This document shows positions 1,987 to 62,702 of a DNA stretch of 64,000 nt, piece by piece. The stretch lies in the IMG/VR virus record IMGVR_UViG_3300045988_111115, positions 1-64,000 of that record; one strand, given 5' to 3'. The notes beneath the pieces were generated by a model. That model made no database searches. It was not told the DNA's origin and saw only the letters and a list, made by a program, of their open reading frames with translations. The stretch comes from a virus. Position 1 is the stretch's first letter, and each line of letters opens with the position of its first letter. The translations under genes and the position numbers were made by a program.

Positions 1987-2415
1987 ATGAATACAGTAGA
2001 ACTAACACCAAAAACAAAGGCATTGACAGTTAAGAGCAAGGCTTTACTTGAAGTCAGTATGATGAACGGTCAAGTAACATTAGTAAACAATGAAAGTTTA
2101 AGACAGGTACTTCTGTACTGCTTACCTGCTCTAACAAAATTAGATGGCTATAATAGGTATGTAGACAGTGTTATAGATACAGTGTTTCATCGGTATAATC
2201 GCACGAACAAGGATAGAGAAGTTGTAGCAATCAGTTTCAATACTATTCAAGATATGGTGTGCTTGACCTTTATACTCAATGATGAGGAACAACCTTGTAC
2301 ACCTGCTCTATTAGAGAGTGGTACACCTGCATTCTGCTATGTACTTAATATAACAGAGAATTTGTTCTCAGAGTTCGGCTATTGTTACTTTGAACATTTT
2401 AAGCGTATAAGCTAA
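1987..2415 (+). CDS. Hypothetical early protein (ATG directly after the conserved leader motif)
   Basis: In-frame part of ORF 1921..2415. Leader AAGAGTGAGAAAGGAG at 1965-1980, 6 nt before the ATG. Confidence 0.55.
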   Translation: MNTVELTPKTKALTVKSKALLEVSMMNGQVTLVNNESLRQVLLYCLPALTKLDGYNRYVDSVIDTVFHRYNRTNKDREVVAISFNTIQDMVCLTFILNDEEQPCTPALLESGTPAFCYVLNITENLFSEFGYCYFEHFKRIS

Positions 2416-2651
2416 TGAATGAAAGGAAAATAGCAAGCACTATTGCAGATACACTTAATGTATTAGGTGTCAATCCTGCAAAAGTAGCTCAAGAACTAAC
2501 TAAGGAACATAAGTCCTTACAGAATACCTTTATGCAGGTCTGTTGTGAGTACATCAAGCAATGTGCAGGTGATAATTATAGCTTTGATGAACGAAACTAT
2601 TTTAACAAAACAGTAGCCTGTTATATTATTAAACAATGCCCCGAACTTTAA
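2415..2651 (+). CDS. Hypothetical small protein
   Basis: 78-aa ORF whose start overlaps the upstream stop (ATGA overlap). Confidence 0.4.
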   Translation: MNERKIASTIADTLNVLGVNPAKVAQELTKEHKSLQNTFMQVCCEYIKQCAGDNYSFDERNYFNKTVACYIIKQCPEL

Positions 2652-2751
2652 GTACTGAACAATAGGGTATGAGTGTTACTCGTACCCTATATTGAGTACC
2701 TAAGGTACTTAGATTTAAACACATACAAGAGTGAGAAAGGAGTTCATCATT

Positions 2752-3552
2752 ATGAACAAAAAGAACTTAACAAAGGCAGAGTTGAAAACAGTATTAGAGG
2801 GTTACGCAAATGTAGTTAAAGAAAAGTCTTTAAAAGACCGTATCAGCTACACTTTGAAGAAGTACAGCAATAGTACCAAGAAAACGGTACTTGACCTTAT
2901 ATCTGATATTGAAACTACGGTTGCACCACTACCTGTTGAAAATTCGGTAAAGAAGTTGCCTGCTAAAAAGACAAAGACTGAAAAAGCTACTGAACCTGAA
3001 GAAAAACCTGAGGAAAAGACAGCTAAGCCTGCACCTAAGAAGAATACTTCAAAAGGTAAGGCAAAACCAAAGCTATCTGCTCCGAAGAGTACTAAAGGTG
3101 CTACAGATAAGTCTGCTCCAATGGCGGCTATCTTCCCTGAGAAGATTGAAGATGAAAACATTGGCACGCTTGTAGCAGTACCTAACAAGTACCACACCAT
3201 AAAGGAACTTAGAGAAGCGATTGAAAGTGGTGAGAAAACTTTAGTAATCGGTGCGTACTTCCCTGTACCATTGATAAAGAAATATGGCTACTCAAACTTT
3301 AATGAAGCTAATGACCGAGTACCAAAGAAAGGTTTTGCTCACGACTTAGACCTACAGCAAGTTATCTACTGTTGTGAGGGTATAAATGCAGTATATGCTC
3401 TTTCGGACTATACAGAAGCAATGTTCGTGTATAGAGACCAAGAGTTAAAGCCTGAAAAAGTTAAAGACAGTACTACAGGTGATACAGTAGCTACACGCTT
3501 TGCCAACGGTTGTGAATTTGAACTTTATGAAGTCATTACCGAAGCAGAATAA
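2752..3552 (+). CDS. Hypothetical lysine-rich early protein (PAPKK-like basic repeats; possible DNA-binding)
   Basis: Leader motif at 2727-2742; ATG 2752. The ORF-track start at 2731 lies inside the RBS motif. Confidence 0.55.
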   Translation: MNKKNLTKAELKTVLEGYANVVKEKSLKDRISYTLKKYSNSTKKTVLDLISDIETTVAPLPVENSVKKLPAKKTKTEKATEPEEKPEEKTAKPAPKKNTSKGKAKPKLSAPKSTKGATDKSAPMAAIFPEKIEDENIGTLVAVPNKYHTIKELREAIESGEKTLVIGAYFPVPLIKKYGYSNFNEANDRVPKKGFAHDLDLQQVIYCCEGINAVYALSDYTEAMFVYRDQELKPEKVKDSTTGDTVATRFANGCEFELYEVITEAE

Positions 3553-3556
3553 GAGC

Positions 3557-3581
3557 CGAAACACCCCTTTTGGGGTGTCTG
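3557..3581 (+). terminator. Stem-loop aacacccc-tttt-ggggtgt, a terminator-like hairpin
   Basis: Perfect 7-8 bp GC-rich stem read directly; no strong U-run. Confidence 0.45.
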
Positions 3582-3661
3582 TATAAGCTGACTACTTATG
3601 CACTGATGATGGCAAGTCATTAGAACTACTAAAACAAAAGAGTGAGAAAGGAAGATACACT

Positions 3662-4138
3662 ATGACTAAAAAAACAGACACTAAAAGTCCGCTTGTAAGA
3701 CAACACATTGAAAAGGTTGTACTACAGTACAGAAACGGAAAAGTTAAGAACTATAACTTGTATAAGAAAGGTATTGGCTTTCCTGCTTTGACCTGCAAAG
3801 GTACAGTACTTCCATATTGGTACTTTAGTAACACTTTAGGTGCTAAGCTGAAAAGAGTACTTAATGGCATAACAAAAGTTACAGTAGGTAAGATTAATAC
3901 CTCTGTATCTGAATACTATACATTAATTTTTGCAGAGCTTAACAAACTACTTGAACAAGACAAGTGGTGGTATGATAGTTACAGTGAAAGAACAGCAAGA
4001 CTATGGGAAAGAGTAAGTAAGCTGTACAGAGAGGTACAAGAAGAGTACTTAGACGACTTGGAAATACCTGAATTGGTACAACACTTCTACAACCATATGC
4101 GACCTGCAAAACCCTTTTTTGATTGGTCGAAGAATTAA
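3662..4138 (+). CDS. Hypothetical early protein
   Basis: Leader motif 3638-3653; 158-aa ORF. Confidence 0.55.
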   Translation: MTKKTDTKSPLVRQHIEKVVLQYRNGKVKNYNLYKKGIGFPALTCKGTVLPYWYFSNTLGAKLKRVLNGITKVTVGKINTSVSEYYTLIFAELNKLLEQDKWWYDSYSERTARLWERVSKLYREVQEEYLDDLEIPELVQHFYNHMRPAKPFFDWSKN

Positions 4139-4236
4139 GTATTGCAACACAGGGTATAAGTACAGTACTTGTACCTTGTATGGAGTATTTAATACTTCAA
4201 GAAAAACATACACTAAGAGTGAGAAAGGAACATATT

Positions 4237-4662
4237 ATGAGTAAAGATGGAATTAAGCTAAGTAAAAAATACGGAGTAAACCCAACTATACCAATCTGTT
4301 TTTGGTGTGGTGAACACAAGAACGAAATAGCTTTATGCGGTCATATTGGTAACTACAGAAAAGGCGAAGACTTTGAAGCACCAAAGAACTGCATACTTGA
4401 CTATGAGCCTTGTGACAAGTGCAAAGAAACTTGGGATAAAGGCGTCGTATTGATAGAGGTAGACACCAAACCACAAGCGGAGGGTCAGCTCCCTATACAA
4501 GACCCTTACTATCCCACAGGCAGATACGTAGTAATGGAAAAGTCCTCTGCTGAAAAGACTTTTAAACCTGAAGTACTTGAAAAGGGACTACTACTTGTAC
4601 CTCAAGAGGTATTTGAACAGATAGTACCTCAAGAGGATAAAGACACCAAAGACAACGAATAG
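4237..4662 (+). CDS. Hypothetical Cys/His-rich (zinc-finger-like) early protein
   Basis: Leader motif 4215-4230; ATG 4237; CFWCGEHKNEIALCGH and CDKC clusters. Confidence 0.55.
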   Translation: MSKDGIKLSKKYGVNPTIPICFWCGEHKNEIALCGHIGNYRKGEDFEAPKNCILDYEPCDKCKETWDKGVVLIEVDTKPQAEGQLPIQDPYYPTGRYVVMEKSSAEKTFKPEVLEKGLLLVPQEVFEQIVPQEDKDTKDNE

Positions 4663-4857
4663 GTCGTATACTGTTAGAGTGTATTACTGAATAGGTAGTA
4701 CACTTTATAGAGTATAAGACTTTAGTAGTGGGTCTGTACTCAATCCGTTAAATATTTTGAGCAGGGTACTAACGACCTCACTCAGTTAGTACCTTGAACA
4801 AAGTACTTAACGGTACTTTGGAACTACTATACTTAAGAGTGAGAAAGGAGAAACACT

Positions 4858-5178
4858 ATGAAAATTATAAGACCTAAGAAATTGGTACAACCACCTGTAG
4901 AGGAGAAGCCAAAGCAAAGAGTGGTAGATGATGATAGCTACCCTGACTTATTAGAGAAAAAGGAATTAGTACTTGGAGATACTAATAAGTTAGTGTTTAG
5001 TGTAGCAAGGGGAGGAGAATATGGTCTCCCTATGATAGACATTAGGCACTACACCGATACAAGTAAGTATTCAGGTCCTACTAAGAAAGGTATTAGACTA
5101 CCACTTGAAATGCTCTATGACTTCTTGGAAATACTTGAGGAAATTGATACCGAGTGTGACGAAAATGGAATTGAGTGA
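4858..5178 (+). CDS. Hypothetical early protein
   Basis: Leader motif 4835-4850; 106-aa ORF. Confidence 0.55.
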   Translation: MKIIRPKKLVQPPVEEKPKQRVVDDDSYPDLLEKKELVLGDTNKLVFSVARGGEYGLPMIDIRHYTDTSKYSGPTKKGIRLPLEMLYDFLEILEEIDTECDENGIE

Positions 5179-7250: not shown

Positions 7251-7392
7251 ATATAATTATATATAATATATTATAATATAGTTAATATTACACATCTAAG
7301 TGAAAAATGGAGGCGGTGTCCAATTTGCAATAGTGCTTTGACAGTGTTATAATGTAGCTACACCAAATGAAGAGAAAGTGAGGTATATAAAA

Positions 7393-7818
7393 ATGAGGTT
7401 TGGAGTACAGTTAATGCAGTTGTTCAAACAAGCCCTTGAAATGAACAAACAGTGGGACGTAAATAAACACCCAATAATACTTATTAAGATAAGAGATACT
7501 ATATTGAGATATACAGGTTGTGAGATACGGTTCAAGTTTAACCCTGTAGACAATTTAGGAGTAGCAATAATGCTTGATGATATATTAGTAGAGGGTTGTA
7601 ATGAGACGTTTACAGAAGTGCTTGAGAGTGTACAAGGTAAGTACATAGGCGGACCACTTGACTTTAATATTACCTCTGCAATGGCAAATGATTTTAATGA
7701 AGCTATGTTGTTAAAGACAAGTGGTAGAGTAAATGCAAAACCTGTAATGACTATATGTTCAGATGAGGAGAAGCTAATAGTAGAAGATTTCATAGTGGAG
7801 GTAGAGTATGATGAATGA
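7393..7818 (+). CDS. Hypothetical protein
   Basis: ORF 7378..7818; ATG 7393 has GTGAGG RBS 9 nt upstream. Confidence 0.5.
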   Translation: MRFGVQLMQLFKQALEMNKQWDVNKHPIILIKIRDTILRYTGCEIRFKFNPVDNLGVAIMLDDILVEGCNETFTEVLESVQGKYIGGPLDFNITSAMANDFNEAMLLKTSGRVNAKPVMTICSDEEKLIVEDFIVEVEYDE

Positions 7819-8233
7819 AGAGTTTAAGAGTTGCTTTTACTGCAAGTACTATAAAGACGGTAAGTGCTTGAGACTGACCGAAGATATAGACTTTGACTAT
7901 GGTTTTGATGTACTGTTTGATAAGTATATCAGCGAAAGTGATATTGATATAAGTGCAGAGGAGCATTTAGTAAATGTACTGTCTATTGAAGAGGTGATAA
8001 AAGGTATTATGAATGTACTTGACCGTAACAGTGTAAGAGTAGGTATCAAGAAAAGAGTACAGATAAAAAAGGACCTTAGTGAGTTGTTGAATGGGTATTA
8101 TGAAAAGTATATACAGGGCAGTGCCGAGTTCGCAAGTGATACAGTACTGAATTTAAAGAATGAGAGAGGGTTAATAAACGAAGTAATGCAGTTAGAGGTC
8201 GAGCCGACTTTCTGCTGTAAATATTGGAGGTAG
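7808..8233 (+). CDS. Hypothetical protein (CxxC...C motif)
   Basis: 141-aa ORF with start/stop overlap to neighbours. Confidence 0.5.
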   Translation: MMNEEFKSCFYCKYYKDGKCLRLTEDIDFDYGFDVLFDKYISESDIDISAEEHLVNVLSIEEVIKGIMNVLDRNSVRVGIKKRVQIKKDLSELLNGYYEKYIQGSAEFASDTVLNLKNERGLINEVMQLEVEPTFCCKYWR

Positions 8234-15230: not shown

Positions 15231-15814
15231 AAGCTGAGATTAAGGTAAATGATAAAGTAATTGAAGTAGAACTAACTACAGAACAAATACAAGAGTTAGG
15301 ACTATTTGATGAGCCAAAGAAAAAGAAAACGGGTTTTGAGCCTACATCAATAGGCGGAGACTATTATATTATAACAACTCATAATGTTGAAAAGCATATT
15401 AATAGAGGGAATGGAAATGATATTCAGAATCGGGCTTCAGATAACTATTTCACAAGTTATGACCTTGCTTCTGATTTAAGAAGAGCCTTTCATCTTAATC
15501 TCCGAATGTTAAAGTGGCAAGCAGAAAATGATGAACCTGCATATGCTTATGACATAGAGGGCTTTGCTTTTGGCCGTTATATTATAACTTACTTCTATAA
15601 TGCTAATACCTATACAGGAGACTTGTGTCCTAAGTGTGTTAAGCCTGAATACAGTTCACCATTTATGGTGTACTTTAGTTCTGAAGAGAAAGCGTGGAAA
15701 GCTATAGAAGAGTTTAGAAGAGATTTAATATGGTATCACGAAGCATTTAAGTGTAGAAGAGATACTATAACCGAAAGTGATATAAGAGTGAAAAATGGAG
15801 GGCAATTATGTTGA
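15227..15814 (+). CDS. Hypothetical protein (CPKC motif)
   Basis: 195-aa ORF with ATGA overlap. Confidence 0.5.
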   Translation: MKAEIKVNDKVIEVELTTEQIQELGLFDEPKKKKTGFEPTSIGGDYYIITTHNVEKHINRGNGNDIQNRASDNYFTSYDLASDLRRAFHLNLRMLKWQAENDEPAYAYDIEGFAFGRYIITYFYNANTYTGDLCPKCVKPEYSSPFMVYFSSEEKAWKAIEEFRRDLIWYHEAFKCRRDTITESDIRVKNGGQLC

Positions 15815-16680
15815 GGAAGATTATACCCTTAGTCAATAACCTAAGTAAGCTTTATATCCTTAATGAAGAGGGTGTACCTTGTTTTGTACACTCTAAGGAA
15901 TACCCTAATGTTGCAACACAACCAATAGTGCCACGCTTCAATGGTTATACCTGTGTTGAAGACTATATGAAAGATGATATAAAATACATAGTACCTATGA
16001 CCGCAAAAGAGATTGAAAGCAAGGAAGAGCAGTTAGAAAAGTTGCAGAGTAAAGACTTCTATGTTGAAGAAAAGTTTGACGGTACAAGAGGTATAATGCA
16101 CTTTTATACTTGTGACCCAAAAACACTTAGAGAAAAGTACTACCCGAACTATAAGGAAGATGAAAAGCAGTATCTAAGTGTATGCCTGTTACAAGGAAGC
16201 TCGATTGTAGACGGTAAACGCAGAATTTATGACTACTTTCTGACACACTCTAAGTCTAAGGATAGAGTAGACTTTTTAAAGCAAGAGTATGGTATAGGAG
16301 GGTATACAGGTTATCCCATATCTTGTAGCTTTAACAGTAAAGGTTTTACTATAGATATGCCAAGTGACAAAGAGATAAATGGACGTTATAGTAAAAGCAT
16401 AACTTACACGTGGAAAACTATTGCCGAAGAGATACAACACCTGATAGATATAAAGCACTACTATGCACAAAAGGGTTATACAAGAGTGTTCAGTAGACGT
16501 GAAAGCAAAAAGACAGGTTGGCTCACTGAGAATACAGATAGTGTACCACAGCTAAGAGATTTAAACCGACCTGAACTTGCAGGTACTATAATTGATGGTG
16601 AGATGTTTATACCTAATCAACCTTTTAAAGCTGTAGCAAGTACCCTAAACTGTAAGTGGGTAACTAAACTGTTACAATAA
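15808..16680 (+). CDS. ATP-dependent DNA ligase, 5' exon or N-terminal fragment (motif I KFDGTRG, motif IV IIDGEM). The frame stops at the insertion boundary
   Basis: EEKFDGTRG is the KxDGxR adenylation motif and DGEMF is motif IV. Motifs V and VI are absent here and found in ORF 19216..20232. Confidence 0.8.
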   Translation: MLRKIIPLVNNLSKLYILNEEGVPCFVHSKEYPNVATQPIVPRFNGYTCVEDYMKDDIKYIVPMTAKEIESKEEQLEKLQSKDFYVEEKFDGTRGIMHFYTCDPKTLREKYYPNYKEDEKQYLSVCLLQGSSIVDGKRRIYDYFLTHSKSKDRVDFLKQEYGIGGYTGYPISCSFNSKGFTIDMPSDKEINGRYSKSITYTWKTIAEEIQHLIDIKHYYAQKGYTRVFSRRESKKTGWLTENTDSVPQLRDLNRPELAGTIIDGEMFIPNQPFKAVASTLNCKWVTKLLQ

Positions 16681-17200
16681 ATATAAACAAATCTGCACAA
16701 ATTTGTGCAGTGGTATAGATTTTATTAAGCAGAAAGCCCTTTGTATCGAGAAATCGGTGCAAACTCAGTGTTAATTGCTTTTAATCCCTAAAGCCTTACA
16801 CCTAAACAGTAATCCGAAAGGATAAACTGAACGGTACGAAAGTAGAAAAAACGTAAGGATGGCATATGGTGAAATAAAAGTACCTCAGTGTTAATGATAG
16901 GACAGATAATTTCTGACGTGACACATTAAAAACGGGTATCCTAAGTGCTTAAGCAATGGGTGTTTAGCAGCGAAAGCCCTAAGTCTTTTTATAAGATATG
17001 GGACACGTTCAACGACTATCTCCTTGAGGGAGAGTAAAACCACAAGCTAATGGTGGAAGAAAAATACTGCCCCACACTACTATGTGGGTGAAGATATAGT
17101 CTACGCTTATGTGAAAGCATAAGAGGTCTGTCGGTAACGATAAGACTGCTATAAGGTTGCGACTTATAGTGAATGAGATAAATATATACATATTTAATTT
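16681..17200 (+). ncRNA. Group I intron catalytic core (P4: aattgctttt 16773-84 with aagcaat 16951-57; R gttcaacgactat 17007-19; P8 hairpin 17071-88; S aagatatagtct 17091-102)
   Basis: Matches R consensus GUUCA.GACUA and S consensus AAGAUAUAGUCY; P7 gacta:tagtc; 18-nt perfect palindrome 16693-16710. Confidence 0.65.
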
Positions 17201-17261
17201 ATTTATATAAATCTATTGACAACAATATAAAATTATGATACCATAGATATATAAAAATAAT

Positions 17262-17897
17262 ATGGTGGTGAATTTTATGGAATTGTTAAGCATAGGTAAA
17301 TTTGCTAAAACTGTAGGAGTAACTACGACAACATTAAGAAGAATGCATCAAAGTGGCGAGTTAATTCCTGCACATATTTCAAATGGTGGAACAAGGTATT
17401 ATTCTACGGAACAATTAAAATTATTCCAATCAAGTAATAATGAAAGAATAGTTATTGGTTATTGTAGAGTAAGTACTCCATCACAAAAAGACGATTTAGA
17501 AACACAAGTACAAAATGTTAAATCATATATGTATGCTAAGGGATATAAATTTGACATTATAAAAGACATTGGTTCGGGTATAAATTATAAAAAGAAAGGT
17601 TTAAAAGAACTCATTAATAGGATAGAAAATAATGAAGTTTCTAAAGTTGTAATTTTATATAAAGATAGGTTGATTCGATTTGGATTTGAATTAATTGAAT
17701 ATTTGTGTGAAATTAATAACGTAGAAATAGAAGTTATAGACAATTCGGAATGTAGTAAAGAGAAAGAATTAACAGATGATTTAATTCAAATTATTACAGT
17801 TTTTGCGAATAGATTGTATGGACAACGTTCAAAGAAAACAAAACGACTTATTAATGAGGTGAGAAACAATGCTGATAACAAAGAAAATCAGACTTAA
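17262..17897 (+). CDS. tnpA: IS607-family TnpA: serine recombinase with an N-terminal MerR-like HTH
   Basis: LSIGKFAKTVGVTTTTLRR HTH; IGYCRVSTPSQKDD catalytic Ser motif; alternative start 17277; upstream TTGACA at 17215. Confidence 0.8.
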   Translation: MVVNFMELLSIGKFAKTVGVTTTTLRRMHQSGELIPAHISNGGTRYYSTEQLKLFQSSNNERIVIGYCRVSTPSQKDDLETQVQNVKSYMYAKGYKFDIIKDIGSGINYKKKGLKELINRIENNEVSKVVILYKDRLIRFGFELIEYLCEINNVEIEVIDNSECSKEKELTDDLIQIITVFANRLYGQRSKKTKRLINEVRNNADNKENQT

Positions 17898-19047
17898 ACC
17901 GACAACTGAACAAGAAATATTATTTCGTAAAAGTGCTGGTGTATCGAGATGGGCATATAATTTCTTTTTAGGTGAGAATGAACGAATATACAGAGAGTAT
18001 ATTGACAATGGAAAAGTTGGTAAGAAAAGCATTAGCGAAGGTGATGTTAGGAAATACATAAATAATATATTAAAACCAACTACTCATTCTTGGCTCAAAG
18101 AAGTTGGAAGTAATGTAATGAAACAAGGTGTTAAAGATGCCAGTCTTGCATTGCAAAGATATTTTAAAGGCTTGTCTGGAAAGCCCAAATTTAAGTCCAA
18201 ACATAAAGACAGACCGAGTTTTTATGTCAATTATGAAAGTCTTTCAAGAAAACAAGGTGGTTTTCAAGGAGAAAAAATAGGCTTTGTAAAAACATCGGAG
18301 GCACTTCCTAAACTAAATAAAAATGAAAAATATTCAAATCCAAGAATAACGTTTGACGGAAAATATTGGTATCTATCTGTTGGCTATGAAGTGCAAGAAA
18401 GCACAGTGGAATTAACAGACGAAAGTTTAGGAATAGATTTAGGAGTTAAAGATTTAGCAATTTGTTCAAACGGAAAGGTTTATAAAAATATAAACAAAAC
18501 TCAAAGAGTTAAAAAGTTAGAGAAGAAACTAAAACGTGAACAGCGAAAATTATCAAGGAAGATTGAAAATAATATTCAATCATATAAATCAAATAGAAAC
18601 CCTATATACAAAAGACCTTTGAAAGAATGTCAAAACATTCAAAAACAAAATCGTCTAATACGAAATATACATAGAAAACTTGCAAATATTCGTCAAAACC
18701 ATTTACATCAAACAACGACAGAGATAGTGAAAACCAAACCATCTCGAATAGTTATGGAAAGTTTAAATGTAAGTGGAATGATGAAAAATAAACATTTATC
18801 AAAAGCAATACAACAACAAAAATTTTATGAATTCAAAAGACAAATTGAATATAAGTCAAAACTAAATGGGATTGAATTCATTCAAGTTGATAAGTTTTAT
18901 CCAAGTAGTAAAACTTGTAGTTGTTGTGGAAATATCAAGAAAGATTTAAAACTTTCGGACAGAATGTATAAATGTGATGTTTGTGGTCTGGTTATTGACC
19001 GAGATTACAATGCAAGTATAAATTTAGCAAATTATGAAGTTATATAA
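17869..19047 (+). CDS. tnpB: TnpB (OrfB) RNA-guided nuclease; RuvC-I/II/III acidic residues and C-terminal zinc finger present
   Basis: GIDLGVKD (D), VMESLN (E), CSCCG...CDVCGLVIDRDYNASINLA (D plus Zn finger); 29-nt overlap with tnpA. Confidence 0.85.
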   Translation: MLITKKIRLKPTTEQEILFRKSAGVSRWAYNFFLGENERIYREYIDNGKVGKKSISEGDVRKYINNILKPTTHSWLKEVGSNVMKQGVKDASLALQRYFKGLSGKPKFKSKHKDRPSFYVNYESLSRKQGGFQGEKIGFVKTSEALPKLNKNEKYSNPRITFDGKYWYLSVGYEVQESTVELTDESLGIDLGVKDLAICSNGKVYKNINKTQRVKKLEKKLKREQRKLSRKIENNIQSYKSNRNPIYKRPLKECQNIQKQNRLIRNIHRKLANIRQNHLHQTTTEIVKTKPSRIVMESLNVSGMMKNKHLSKAIQQQKFYEFKRQIEYKSKLNGIEFIQVDKFYPSSKTCSCCGNIKKDLKLSDRMYKCDVCGLVIDRDYNASINLANYEVI

Positions 19048-19234
19048 ATTCACTTAAAAGAATTATATAACTATGTACCTATCGCTATTAGGGAATTTAC
19101 GTCTATGGAGTGTCATAACAAATGAAAGTAGCTACGGCAAAATCAGACACGTTGAAGTAGAAAGTCTTAATCGTGAGATAAGGCACAGTATAGATTTATA
19201 TAAATTAGTTGTAATTTGTATATGTTTATCATAG
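19048..19234 (+). ncRNA. IStron 3' segment: candidate omega-RNA scaffold and intron 3' end / 3' splice site
   Basis: Non-coding 187 nt after the tnpB stop; stem-loop-prone sequence (cacgttgaag...cttaatcgtg); abuts the ligase exon 2. Confidence 0.4.
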
Positions 19235-20232
19235 CGGATAAAGCTATAACAAGACAGCTTGAATTAGGTGGTGTAGTATTCCACGCTTTTGATATACTTT
19301 TCTTTAAAGGTATTGACTTACGTAAAATGCCTTTGGAAAGACGTAAAGTGTATCTGCATATAGTATGTGATACTTTAAATTCACCTTTTGTGAAAGAGGT
19401 AAAGTACTATGATGAAGACGGAATAGTAGTACCCCTTTTAAGTATGTCTGATAGGGATAGAATATTGAATAACCCTGAACTATATCCGAATTTAGCTGAG
19501 GATATAAAGCACTATATGTCAAATGCACTGTATTATGAGGAAGATGAGAGTAATGACGGTGAGCCTTTACCTTTTAGAATTTCCAAAGCTTCTTACTATG
19601 AGTATATAGTCTTTACAGGAGGAGAGGGAGTAGTAGTAAAGCCTAAGACAGGTAAGTACTATCACAAAAGAGGTAGAGAGTATGAGAAGATAAAGAAGTT
19701 CCTAACAAGAGAATGTATTATCTGTGGTTTTACCCCACCTACACAAGCGTATAAGGGTAAGTTCCCTGATGATAGTTGGTCCTATTGGATAGACAATGAG
19801 ACAGGAGAAAAGCAAGACCCTGAAGAGTGTGCTAATATGTCAGCTAAGAAGTTACAAAAGACTTGCACACCTGTTACAAAGTACTACTTTGAAAATTGGG
19901 TAGGTAATGTAGAGTATGGAGTGCTAATCTCCGAAGATGAGATTAAGAAGTTACCTAAGAACAAAAATCACGATATTAGGACAGTCGAAGTATTGACAGA
20001 CTATAATGACAGAAAGTATCTAAAAGTACTTGTTGTAGGTGAATGTAGTGGTTTTGATGATGATGAGAGAGCGTGGTTTACTGAACATAAAGATGAAGTA
20101 ATCGGTCAAGTAATCGAAGTCAAAGCTAATGAGATATTCAGAGATACAGGTAAACTTAGACACCCTCGCTATTTGAGACTAAGACCTGATAAGTCGGCTG
20201 AACAGTGTACCTTTAAAGAGCATATACTTTAA
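19235..20232 (+). CDS. ATP-dependent DNA ligase, 3' exon or C-terminal fragment (AFDIL...PLERR, motif V EGVVVK, OB-fold region); exact exon start uncertain
   Basis: HAFDILFFKGIDLRKMPLERRKVYL and GGEGVVVKPKTGKYY; the open frame begins after the stop at 19201; the track ORF starts at TTG 19216. Confidence 0.7.
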
Positions 20233-59712: not shown

Positions 59713-59931
59713 GTGAAAACGGCAAGAACGACTATTGAGACCAGTGTTACACTTATGGAAGAAGTCAAGAAGAAAGCTAATTCTAATAGTGAAAACATTG
59801 GAGACTTTATCACAAGAGCCTTGCTTAATCAACTTGAAGCTGAGGGTGATTTTGAAATTAGAGAAGAAGTGGAGGAAGAACTAAATGGCAGTTGTGAAAA
59901 GAAAATCAGTAACCAAAAAAGCAGAGCCTAA
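59713..59931 (+). CDS. Ribbon-helix-helix (CopG/Arc-like) DNA-binding protein (GTG start)
   Basis: N-terminal beta-strand TTIETSVTLMEEVKKKA followed by two helices. Confidence 0.45.
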   Translation: MKTARTTIETSVTLMEEVKKKANSNSENIGDFITRALLNQLEAEGDFEIREEVEEELNGSCEKKISNQKSRA

Positions 59932-60994
59932 AAAGGCTACTACACCAAAGAAGAGCAATCCTGATTTGAATAAGATTGTGGAGGGACTGAATAAGAAGTT
60001 CGGAGACAATGTAGTAGCAGTAGGTTTTAGCAAGACCTATGCACAAAGTAACAAAGTACAAAGAATACCTACAGGTAGCTTTACACTTGATATTGCTTTA
60101 GGTGGGGGACTTCCTTTAGGTAGGTACATTGAAATATCTGGTGCTTATTCTTCTACAAAAACCTCACAAGTACTTGATATTATAAGAGAAGCACAAAAAG
60201 CAGGACTTATATGTGCTCTACTTGATGTAGAGGGCACTACTGATGAGGTGTATTTGAAGCGTAAAGGGGTAGATGTAGATAACTTACTTTATTCAAGACC
60301 CGCAGGAATGGAGGAAGCCTGTGACTTGATGTTAGAGTTACAGAAGAGCGGAGAAGTACATTTAGGTGTAATAGATAGTATCGCCGCTATGTCTCCAAAT
60401 AAGGAACAAGAGACCGCAATAGCCGATAGTGTTCGTATGGGTATCCCTCAACAAATACTCGGAGAGTTTTTCCGTAAGTTTCAAGCAAACAATAATAAAC
60501 TTGATAGAGAGGGAAAGACACCTTTTACACTTATTGGACTTAATCAGCTAAGAGAAAAGATTGGTGCTTATGGTGACCCTGAATATACACCGGGGGGTAG
60601 AGCAAAAGGTTTTACCTGTAGTGTAGATATTCGTCTCCGTAGAGGAGATTGGATAGTACAAGGTACAGGTGTTGACAAAGAAATGGTGGGTCAAGTAGTG
60701 AAGTTCAAGATTGAAAAGAACAAGACCTATAAGCGTATGCAGTCAGGAGAGTTTGATTTTTATTTCAGTGAAAACAATGCAGGAGTACCTGTTTCATACA
60801 ATGATACAGAAAAAGAAGTTGTTGTATGTGCCGTTGAGTATGGTGTTATTGAAAGAGCAGGTGCTTGGTTTAAGTATGAAGACAAGAAGTTTCAAGGACT
60901 TGCTAATCTTGTTGATGAACTTAAAACCAATCCTGAACTACTTGCGGAACTGAAAGAAAAAGTAATGTACTTGAGTACAAGGGAGAACACATAA
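59885..60994 (+). CDS. RecA-family recombinase
   Basis: RIPTGSFTLDIALGGGLPLGRYIEISGAYSSTKT resembles the RecA P-loop region; 369 aa. Confidence 0.75.
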   Translation: MAVVKRKSVTKKAEPKKATTPKKSNPDLNKIVEGLNKKFGDNVVAVGFSKTYAQSNKVQRIPTGSFTLDIALGGGLPLGRYIEISGAYSSTKTSQVLDIIREAQKAGLICALLDVEGTTDEVYLKRKGVDVDNLLYSRPAGMEEACDLMLELQKSGEVHLGVIDSIAAMSPNKEQETAIADSVRMGIPQQILGEFFRKFQANNNKLDREGKTPFTLIGLNQLREKIGAYGDPEYTPGGRAKGFTCSVDIRLRRGDWIVQGTGVDKEMVGQVVKFKIEKNKTYKRMQSGEFDFYFSENNAGVPVSYNDTEKEVVVCAVEYGVIERAGAWFKYEDKKFQGLANLVDELKTNPELLAELKEKVMYLSTRENT

Positions 60995-60995
60995 A

Positions 60996-61268
60996 ATGTC
61001 ATTCGGAAGAGGTTATGCAGAGTTAAATACTCGCTTAGAAAAACGGTCAAGATTTACTATGTCGTGTTATAATTGTGACTATTTTTATCAGACCGCAGAA
61101 GATGAAGAAGAGGTGTGCCAAAACCCCAATGTATTACAGTATGATATGGTTGTATCAGAGAATAATATATACTGTAACCTTTGGACTAACTGCAAGGATA
61201 AGCAAGACCAAAAGTTACGCAGGGAGAAAGCAGTACCTACTGTAAAATCAATATTTAAGAAGAGGTGA
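60996..61268 (+). CDS. Hypothetical Cys-rich protein
   Basis: CYNCDYF...C...C...C; 90 aa. Confidence 0.4.
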   Translation: MSFGRGYAELNTRLEKRSRFTMSCYNCDYFYQTAEDEEEVCQNPNVLQYDMVVSENNIYCNLWTNCKDKQDQKLRREKAVPTVKSIFKKR

Positions 61269-61307
61269 GTACTTTGAATATAACTTAGACCACAAGGAGG
61301 TTAGCAG

Positions 61308-61784
61308 ATGAGTACTGTTAAGAAGATTTCCCAAAAGCAAGAAGCAAAGGTAGCTAAAGACCTTAATGCTAAGACAGTAGTAGCAAGTGGTGCTTTATGG
61401 GGAGCAAAAGGTGATGTCAGAAGTGATAAGTACCTTGTAGAGTGTAAAACCACAAGCAAGTCCTTTTATTCCCTTACATCAAATGTATGGGGTAAAATAA
61501 AACGCGAAGCTATTAAAGACGGATTGAGAGTACCTGCTATGTGTATTGAAGTAAAAGGGCAGTCTGTAGCTATAGTTGAGCAAGGGTTAGTTCAGGACTA
61601 TTTGACAGAACATTGTATAAAGATATATAGTGTAGATGTGCTTGCAAAGTCCTTTAGAGTTAGGGCAGATTATGATAAGCCTGTAGCTTATACCTGTATA
61701 GATAAGAGTTGGGGCAAACACCCTGAAAAACTTGTACAGATGGGTTGGGAAAACTTTGTAGCAATCGCAGATGATTTAATATAA
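61308..61784 (+). CDS. PD-(D/E)xK family nuclease (possible Holliday junction resolvase)
   Basis: GDVRSDKYLVECKTT resembles the D...ExK active-site arrangement. Confidence 0.45.
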   Translation: MSTVKKISQKQEAKVAKDLNAKTVVASGALWGAKGDVRSDKYLVECKTTSKSFYSLTSNVWGKIKREAIKDGLRVPAMCIEVKGQSVAIVEQGLVQDYLTEHCIKIYSVDVLAKSFRVRADYDKPVAYTCIDKSWGKHPEKLVQMGWENFVAIADDLI

Positions 61785-61805
61785 AGAATATGAGGTGAGT
61801 ACATA

Positions 61806-62702
61806 ATGGCTTTAAAATCAGTGTTTAGTAGTATGAAGAGAGAGGGTTATGTGATAAAGCCTTTGGACTACTACTTACTAACACTTAACAAAGAAGACAA
61901 TGACAGGGCGATTAATGTAAATGCTCCGTCACAGATAGGTAGCTGTTTACGTTCACGCTACTATGCACGAATAGGAGCAGAAGCAGACCCTAATACTGTT
62001 GACGGAAGACAGAGAAGAATATTTGATAATGGTACAGGAGTTCACGAGAGACTTCAAGCATACTTGAAGAAGCAAGGTATGTTACTTGCTGATGAAATAC
62101 CTGTTATTAATACAGAGTACAGCATTCAGGGTCATACTGACGGACTTCTAAAGTTATCAAGTGCTGAAATAGGAGTACTTGAAATTAAGTCCATAAACAG
62201 TAAGGGTTTCAGTAGCTTAAAAGGTGCAAAAGAAAATCATAAGTTACAAGGAATATCTTATATCTACTGCTTAGAGGAACGCAGAAAAGCACTTCACGAA
62301 AAGTATAAAAATATGCAAGCGTTCCTATTGGATAAGAAAGCGAGATATAAGTACTATGAACAGTTTTATCAACATTTAAAAGGCGGTACTAAGCATAGCC
62401 GAGATGAGAAAATTAAGTTTCAGTGTGACCTGCATAATCAGTCGGATAAAATACTTATGCAAACGAACATTCCTATAACTAAGGCAGTATTTCTTTATGA
62501 GAACAAAGATACACAAGAACTTAAAGAGTACCTTATAACTACCAAGTCTGAAGAGGGGGCAAGCTATTTGGACAGTATCTTAAATGAGTGTGCTCTTTTA
62601 AATAACTATGTGGATAAGAAGAAAGCACCACCAAGAGAGGGTACTAACCGTTCCTGTACACAGTGCCGTTGGTGTAACTATAAAATTGAATGTTGGAATT
62701 GA
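61806..62702 (+). CDS. Cas4/RecB-like PD-(D/E)xK exonuclease with a four-Cys Fe-S signature
   Basis: N-terminal CLRSRYY; GHTDGLL...LEIKS; C-terminal CTQCRWCNYKIEC. Confidence 0.6.
   Translation: MALKSVFSSMKREGYVIKPLDYYLLTLNKEDNDRAINVNAPSQIGSCLRSRYYARIGAEADPNTVDGRQRRIFDNGTGVHERLQAYLKKQGMLLADEIPVINTEYSIQGHTDGLLKLSSAEIGVLEIKSINSKGFSSLKGAKENHKLQGISYIYCLEERRKALHEKYKNMQAFLLDKKARYKYYEQFYQHLKGGTKHSRDEKIKFQCDLHNQSDKILMQTNIPITKAVFLYENKDTQELKEYLITTKSEEGASYLDSILNECALLNNYVDKKKAPPREGTNRSCTQCRWCNYKIECWN

Follow-up and report, generated by a model that had tools for sequence, protein, structure and literature searches.

The stretch analysed here, positions 1 to 64,000 of the IMG/VR virus record IMGVR_UViG_3300045988_111115 (64,000 nucleotides, hereafter the window), raises the question of what an RNA-guided TnpB nuclease is doing in the genome of a phage. 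A first-pass annotation had described the gene as carried by a lytic-type phage and had suggested a use against co-infecting relatives. The gene is real and its product looks catalytically intact, but it is not free-standing: it is one module of a larger element, with a group I intron on its 5′ side and a RAGATH-18 RNA on its 3′ side. Very likely, this element is a group B IStron, intact and recently transposed, that has inserted in sense into the ATP-dependent DNA ligase gene of the phage and in which TnpB serves as the nuclease. The presence of an intron, a serine-recombinase tnpA, a tnpB, and a guide RNA together makes the element, as judged by its sequence, an IS607-type IStron—group B of Tourasse et al. 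2014. The marks of this group are a target site ending in GG (AGGG, TGGG, or GAGG), a 3′ end CGG, the lack of a target-site duplication, and an IA2 intron (PMC4227781). In DNA sequence, the element comes closest to ISCbt4/CbISt3 in Clostridium phage c-st (73.6%), CboIStron (73.5%), and SrISt1 of Selenomonas ruminantium (71.4%).

The interrupted ligase and the modules of the element

The two open reading frames (ORFs) flanking the element are the halves of one ATP-dependent DNA ligase, with a homology far beyond chance. Exon 1 contains the KxDG adenylation motif and the DGE motif III and ends in ...NCKW plus a G. Joining position 16660 to position 19238 yields an ORF of 615 aa (...STLNCKW/DKAITRQ..., the slash marking the joint), which has the same length as the ligase of uninterrupted relatives. 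Precise removal of the element regenerates the ligase, and the sequence NCKWDKAI is unbroken in 22 uninterrupted homologues (12 distant and 10 near-identical); in the 12 distant IMG/VR phage ligases, at about 50% aa identity, the longer STLNCKWDKAI continues across the joint. The homology of four aligned IStrons (those of the window, c-st, Cbo, and SrISt1) begins right after TGGG and stops right after CGG. The junctions read ...AAGTGGG/TAAC......AGCGG/ATAAAG without a target-site duplication, and the empty sites of relatives read TGGG/ATAAAG, with no base gained or lost. TGGG codes for Trp (TGG) and supplies the first base of an Asp codon; it adjoins the left end in the window, in c-st, CboIStron, and SrISt1, in the prophage copies, and in the viral contig L052 described below. 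Noncoding DNA of about 600 nt separates the exon 1 ORF from tnpA, and 190 nt lie between tnpB and the second half of the ligase. As a side observation, residues ~100–220 of the joined ligase (15808–20232) form an extra segment of ~120 aa after the adenylation motif, which is shared with the four closest homologues from IMG/VR (L004–L007) and missing from eight others (L008–L015).

TnpB matches the Pfam families HTH_OrfB_IS605 (2.8e-13), OrfB_IS605 (1.1e-17), and Cas12f1-like_TNB (1.4e-23), all beyond the curated cut-offs. Its best match among solved structures is 8iaz_A, the IS607-type TnpB of ISFba1 (E 3.3e-78), and ISDra2 TnpB follows at 1.3e-30. The motifs RuvC-I, RuvC-II, and RuvC-III and the CxxC...CxxC zinc finger, which had been picked out by eye in the first-pass annotation, are present and correctly assigned in an alignment to ISDra2, ISFba1, and CboTnpB. 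In GIDLGVKD (residues 188–195), D190 (18436–18438) aligns with ISDra2 D191, ISFba1 D194, and CboTnpB D189; in VMESLN (residues 295–300), E297 (18757–18759) aligns with ISDra2 E278 and ISFba1 E290; and in DRDYNASINL (residues 377–386), the counterparts of the second Asp, D379 (19003–19005), are ISDra2 D361 and, in the ISFba1 structure 8iaz, the site of the D371A substitution. The true catalytic residues D190, E297, and D379 are, hence, kept, and a misassignment of the motifs is set aside. The catalytic roles of the aligned RuvC residues have been reported for ISDra2 and ISFba1 (PMC11061315). The zinc-finger cysteines are C350/C353 and C369/C372, and the identity to the experimentally active CboTnpB amounts to 68% over 391 aa. 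A reading of the protein as a nuclease-dead regulator of the TldR kind is ruled out by the intact RuvC triad. TnpA likely starts at 17277, which gives a protein of 206 aa that is 80% identical to the active CboTnpA. Its catalytic Ser in RVSTPSQ, already recognized from the motif, is S71 when counted from the first ATG and S66 from the start chosen by gene callers, and aligns with CboTnpA S67. A promoter-like site upstream of tnpA is assigned tentatively because such sites are, in total, no more frequent in the region than expected by chance.

The intron is supported by a match of its core to the Rfam family RF00028 at 16886–17123 (47.0 bits, E 8.9e-11), which includes the conserved blocks GUUCAACGACUA and GAAGAUAUAGUC. 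This match surfaced only in a search of 700 nt; scans of 6 kb (E ≤ 1) and of the whole window (E ≤ 0.01) missed it owing to their speed filters. In a search for further introns in the window, an nhmmer profile built on the left ends of the four IStrons found this copy only, and the absence of other Rfam matches is weak evidence in this respect. The E value of 5e-163 for this profile is partly circular, as the window is among the four. The consensus fold of the same left ends by RNAalifold has 134 pairs, 38 of which show compensatory changes. In this fold, P1 pairs the exon GGG (16658–16660) with CCC (16737–16739) and U16661 with G16736; P3 encloses the P4–P6 region, followed by two P7.1/P7.2-like hairpins, P8, and three 3′ hairpins (P8–P9.2). 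A 5′ splice site after U is ruled out: only cuts after G restore the frame of the ligase, so the last exon base is G. Such a G at the end of the 5′ exon is a known oddity of group B IStrons (PMC4227781). The inverted repeat that encloses the ORFs has 38 pairs, 32 of them A-U (84%), at −34.5 kcal/mol; a long stem of this type, with more than 80% A-U, is a defining feature of the group (PMC4227781).

The 3′ part of the element carries a full-length match to RAGATH-18 (RF03064) at 19102–19163, with 73.5 bits against a gathering score of 44.9 (E 6.7e-14). RAGATH-18 RNA has been demonstrated to be the guide-RNA scaffold of IS607 TnpBs (PMC11061315). A long-range helix of the pseudoknot type pairs CGCUAU (19083–19088) with AUAGCG (19231–19236) and ends 1 nt short of the element boundary. 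Two of its columns are compensatory across the four IStrons, including c-st, Cbo, and SrISt1, and the helix fits the pseudoknot of CboIStron, whose 3′ strand overlaps the 3′ splice site. An alternative helix for the 3′ splice site, formed by CUGCUAU (17146–17152) and the AUAGCGG 3′ end, was rejected, as it shows no compensation in c-st, Cbo, or SrISt1. The arrangement of the scaffold agrees with that of ISFba1 reRNA and Cbo omegaRNA. The predicted guide segment ATAAAGCTATAACAAGACAG doubles as the first 20 nt of ligase exon 2. An ORF of 53 aa (19073–19234, + strand), called as a gene in several metagenome contigs, lies wholly within the scaffold and is most likely spurious over structured RNA.

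Table 1. Features of the IStron locus, in window coordinates
Feature	Position	Strand	Basis
DNA ligase exon 1	15808..16660	+	ORF; Pfam DNA_ligase_A_M
TGGG: transposase target, target-adjacent motif (TAM) of TnpB, and 5′ splice-site context	16657..16660	+	abuts left end of the element
Whole IS607-family (group B) IStron, 2,577 bp	16661..19237	+	limits of homology; identity to prophage copies; collinear relatives
Group I (IA2-like) intron ribozyme, P1 to P9.2	16661..17176	+	RF00028; RNAalifold consensus
AU-rich inverted repeat, 5′ arm	17177..17216	+	pairs with 19190–19230
Promoter-like site 5′ of tnpA (tentative): TTGACA, 17 nt, TG-n-TACCAT	17216..17244	+	position of TTGACA kept in c-st and Cbo
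tnpA, IS607-type serine recombinase	17262..17897	+	Pfam MerR HTH and Resolvase
tnpB, RNA-guided RuvC nuclease, 392 aa	17869..19047	+	Pfam; structure and homologue alignments
Guide-RNA (omegaRNA or right-end element RNA, reRNA) scaffold	19061..19237	+	RF03064; ends in GCGG; 5′ limit inferred
AU-rich inverted repeat, 3′ arm	19190..19230	+	overlaps guide-RNA scaffold
Predicted guide segment ATAAAGCTATAACAAGACAG	19238..19257	+	rule of the family: 3′ flank serves as guide
DNA ligase exon 2 (DKAITRQ... to stop codon)	19238..20232	+	joins to exon 1 as ORF

Empty sites, further copies, and the carrier phage

Relatives of the phage were found by the exact sequence of the portal protein of the window, which yielded 10 distinct contigs. 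All 10 carry an uninterrupted ligase of 615 aa, whose DNA is 98.6–99.8% identical to the joined exons and, for 40 nt to either side of the junction, does not differ from the window. The relatives are collinear with it over 21 kb at 98.6–99.9%—with the exception of one short flank (L035, 97.0% over 1.8 kb)—and the sole large difference is the 2,577-bp insert. A look-up with the 195-aa protein upstream of the ligase returned uninterrupted ligases only and added one more distinct contig, so that one occupied allele stands against at least 11 empty ones. In each of the 10 compared relatives, the empty site reads TGGG/ATAAAGCTATAACAAGACAG, with 0 mismatches to the 20-nt guide. The presence/absence comparison that the first-pass annotation had proposed has, hence, turned up element-free relatives with a perfect target. 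Where the element is present, GCGG takes the place of TGGG in front of this 20-mer, and the C falls on position −3, which is the position reported to prevent self-cleavage; the occupied allele would be protected because of this replacement. No other TGGG site with a guide-like sequence occurs in the 64-kb window.

The exact TnpB is listed in 251 blocks of an assembly collection and the exact TnpA in 446. In 10 human gut metagenome contigs (55–441 kb), the element is 99.8–100% identical over TGGG, the 2,577 bp, and the following A, and six of these copies show zero differences. Their insertion site differs from that in the ligase and is noncoding: ...CCGAACCTTGGG/...CGG/A(A/G)ACCAAGTTG, about 385 nt downstream of a tape-measure gene. 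The neighbours YomU, YomW, YomN, and a 2,920-aa NlpC/P60 protein point to an SPbeta-like prophage as the carrier; one contig carrying the identical TnpB has a length of 3.04 Mb. A third site is found in the viral IMG/VR contig L052 (20.8 kb), where a variant of exactly 2,577 bp (2293–4869), with a TnpB that is 97% identical, has inserted in sense and in frame into an N-acetylmuramoyl-L-alanine amidase-like (endolysin-type) ORF, after ...CCATTGGG. All three known insertion sites are TGGG, and the copies at two of them do not diverge at all. Among the relatives, the phage backbone varies by 0.1–1.4%; set against the lack of divergence in the element, this makes the insertion into the ligase younger than the diversification of the phage lineage. 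The guide at the prophage site mismatches the ligase, which suggests that the jump was a transposition by TnpA and not a homing event driven by TnpB. With 99.8–100% identical copies at one other site and a 97% variant at a third, the element is very probably still mobile, as had been surmised from the tnpA motif. Among GTDB representative genomes, no identical TnpB was found; the best match, at 69%, is in Hominimerdicola aceti.

Several observations concern these copies and their surroundings. A second IStron family, with a TnpB that is 69% identical, occupies one fixed site, ...TTGCTGGG/...AACGG/AACGGCTAAAGC, in L036 and L053–L071; its carriers are Hominimerdicola aceti and eight large IMG/VR contigs (45–116 kb), presumably of one prophage lineage. 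Some of the SPbeta-like prophage copies have an insert of about 490 nt, devoid of ORFs, that splits the tape-measure gene: L016 (3086–3577), L018, L020, L023, and L025 (~1460–1700); in L017, L019, L022, and L024, the gene is intact. The insert resembles the IStron intron (nhmmer E 1e-12 to 1e-15; RF00028 21.8 bits, E 0.008) and is probably a free-standing group I intron with a presence/absence polymorphism. In L016–L025, the prophage IStron copy sits within ~1 kb of noncoding DNA (4408–4792 and 7370–8012). The rejoined flanks would fold as the hairpin CTTGG-GAAA-CCAAG, and a weak intron-like nhmmer match lies just upstream (4489–4678, E ~2e-4 to 4e-4); this copy may be nested in another structured RNA or intron. 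In L021 (5393–6029), tnpA is called as two genes of 86 and 122 aa, i.e., it is frameshifted, and tnpB is intact, which fits the published pattern of TnpA decaying first in IStrons.

The window covers 64 kb of a genome of ~78 kb, with ~14 kb outside. Its structural genes encode terminase, an SPP1-type portal, capsid, sheath, tube, baseplate, tape measure, and endolysin, and its replication genes encode a DNA polymerase, primase, DnaB-like helicase, loader, and single-stranded DNA-binding protein. A module at 59885–62702 (+ strand) with a UvsX-like recombinase, a Holliday-junction resolvase, and a Cas4-like exonuclease could repair a break made by TnpB from a co-infecting genome. No integrase or repressor was seen among the ORFs scanned in the window. 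Of the ORFs with 150 aa or more, all except two share one strand. Among isolated phages, Bacillus phage BCD7 comes closest, with a terminase of 48.8% aa identity. The lytic (virulent) lifestyle assumed at the outset is plausible in view of the phage's own replisome and recombination genes and the lack of an integrase among these ORFs, and falls short of proof with 64 of ~78 kb covered. Apart from these genes, a near-threshold match to a type II hammerhead ribozyme is found at 3554–3621 (+ strand; 34.4 bits against a gathering score of 37, E 2e-5 locally), with the CUGAUGA, CGAAAC, and GUC core elements intact, in the gap between the ORFs 2731–3552 and 3662–4138.

Proposed mechanism and competing explanations

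By analogy with the 68–80% identical CboIStron, in which each step has an experimental precedent, splicing, transposition, cleavage, and homing would all be expected of this copy. TnpA would move the element as a double-stranded circle into the TGGG of the ligase gene, the likely donor being a co-resident SPbeta-like prophage with an identical copy. The group I intron at the 5′ side would act with the element's 3′ end to splice the whole 2.6 kb from the ligase pre-mRNA, so that the 615-aa ligase is made and the insertion stays largely silent; the predicted junction of the spliced message is ...AAGUGGG/AUAAAGCU. Self-splicing of this kind would explain how the phage tolerates an insertion in its ligase. 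Unspliced transcripts would yield TnpB and a guide RNA made of the RAGATH-18 scaffold and ~20 nt of ligase exon 2. The complex of both would cut ligase alleles in which TGGG is directly joined to the 20-mer—either the allele left behind by excision or that of a co-infecting empty relative—and recombinational repair from an occupied copy would then re-install or spread the element (homing). As the empty joint is the allele of every relative with a readable ligase, cleavage during co-infection is a concrete prediction. With flanks that are ~99% identical and a phage recombination system at hand, the expected outcome is homing, possibly along with marker exclusion.

A number of points weigh against an intact and homing IStron. 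The score of the intron sits 3 bits under the Rfam gathering score of 50, and the omegaRNA is without a ~15-nt segment found in c-st and Cbo, which is also absent from SrISt1. An exact-protein index lacks the products of both ligase exons, and the occupied 34-mer junction is absent from IMG/VR and the JGI metagenomes; the occupied allele was found in this window only, so spread by homing shows no sign yet. The insertion could be a neutral or mildly harmful recent landing. Carried further, this would make the element a silent or dead-end passenger: a very recent accident in which TnpB and the guide are unexpressed or inactive, or in which the element splices poorly and the variant carrying it is slightly defective and short-lived. 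As the element does not differ at all from the donor-type copies, selection in the phage had no time to act; the occupied junction was found in no other collection looked at; and IStrons are known to differ widely in splicing, with TnpB and omegaRNA acting as repressors. Yet all modules are intact, and an insertion in sense and in frame is just what splicing needs; the 97% variant lies in the same way, in sense and in frame, within the amidase gene of a phage, which suggests that such insertions persist. On balance, a passenger of this kind is quite unlikely. Far more improbable still is a misassembly that joined a repeat shared with a host prophage into the phage contig. Repeats of this kind do confuse assemblers, and the element has copies with 100% identity in other genomes from the same habitat; but one and the same phage provides both flanks, which are collinear with 10 relatives, and the junctions fall exactly at TGGG and CGG with no base duplicated or lost and the frame restored; a chimeric join would not mimic the rule of the transposase at both ends.

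What the first-pass annotation had in mind was inter-phage competition, and this stands in so far as element-free relatives with perfect targets exist; it does not stand as the best-supported function and may be a by-product of selfish homing. In its strict form, TnpB would be kept mainly for cutting the ligase of co-infecting element-free relatives and lowering their yield, by interference competition or marker exclusion. Perfect targets of TAM plus 20 nt in at least 10 circulating relatives speak for such a use, as does the place of the target in a conserved replication gene; an intron-encoded homing endonuclease has been shown to mediate such competition in phage PhiPA3 (PMC11620839), and a 2026 OMEGA review names co-infecting phages as possible targets of transposon homing. 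Against this, the element is identical to prophage copies and is a newcomer rather than a co-evolved phage gene, the occupied allele is rare (one against at least 11 distinct empty contigs), and the guide is fixed automatically by the insertion site and not selected by the phage. Donor and target are, in addition, 99% identical, which leads one to expect gene conversion (homing) over killing. A weapon maintained for its own sake is, hence, unlikely, and the selfish reading is the simpler one. Such TnpBs are established as serving selfish homing and the maintenance of the transposon (bioRxiv 10.1101/2023.11.20.567912).

Beyond the assignment as a recently transposed group B IStron, an RNA-guided "gene drive" at its very start can be envisaged, which we regard as possible rather than probable. 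An IStron from a resident SPbeta-like prophage would have entered the ligase of an infecting, virulent-type gut phage; its guide would thereby have been re-programmed to the wild-type allele, and IStron-free phages would be converted or excluded in mixed infections. Since the TAM is encoded by a Trp-Asp codon pair, the target could not escape by a silent mutation of the TAM. If true, the identical prophage copy would also point to the host of the phage. The nuclease itself is no discovery: IStrons and TnpBs are well described, and an intact TnpB is the rule there. Group B IStrons (one of them in phage c-st), the pairing of IS607 TnpB with RAGATH-18, and the conflict between splicing and guide formation are already published, and the homing of a transposon into co-infecting phages was raised conceptually in the 2026 OMEGA review. 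The value of the locus lies in a natural trio—an occupied phage, at least 11 empty relatives (the 10 compared being ~99% identical), and a base-identical, donor-type copy in prophages of the same habitat—which makes TnpB-guided homing between co-infecting phages testable. The same material bears on the jump of a transposon from a prophage into a superinfecting phage, and the element shared with the prophages may hint at the host of the phage.

Comparison with known systems

CboIStron of the Clostridium botulinum BKT015925 plasmid p1BKT015925 has been shown to transpose, to splice, and to cut empty sites, and its TGGG TAM is experimental (bioRxiv 10.1101/2023.11.20.567912). It has the same order of modules as the element in the window, a TnpB of likewise 392 aa, and DNA that is 73.5% identical over 93% of the window element (TnpB 68%, TnpA 80%). 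Both share the TGGG TAM, the ...CGG end, and a sense insertion in a gene of a phage-like replicon. In contrast, the scaffold of CboIStron ends in UCGG and that of the window in GCGG, with a ~15-nt segment of the 3′ scaffold missing in the latter; and CboIStron sits in an antirepressor-type gene (Rha upstream, Ant downstream), whereas the present copy sits in the ligase of a myovirus-like phage. CbISt3/ISCbt4 and SrISt1 have in common with the window element the GG-ending target, the CGG end, G as the last base of the 5′ exon, the IA2 intron, and the AU-rich inverted repeat. Their sizes of 2559 and 2583 bp compare with 2577 bp here, at a DNA identity of ~71–74%. The c-st copy resides in a large temperate phage-plasmid, whereas the carrier here looks virulent and the split gene encodes a replication enzyme.

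ISFba1 shares the RuvC triad and the scaffold layout of a 5′ flank, RAGATH-18, a 3′ flank, and a guide of ~20 nt (PMC11061315; PDB 8iaz). It differs in its TAM, which is AGGAG or GAGGG instead of TGGG, and no intron is described for ISFba1.

Virulent phages are also home to group I introns with homing endonucleases, such as T4 td/I-TevI, those of SPO1/SP82, and PhiPA3 gp210, which lie in conserved genes of DNA metabolism. The nuclease of such an intron can cut the intron-less allele of a co-infecting relative. The nuclease in the window differs from these in being RNA-guided, so that it would be re-targeted automatically at each new insertion site, and the element brings its own transposase and is, hence, not bound to one homing site. 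If the gene-drive reading is true, the IStron would correspond to the classical intron homing endonucleases of T-even phages, with the difference that it is guided by RNA and can be re-targeted freely.

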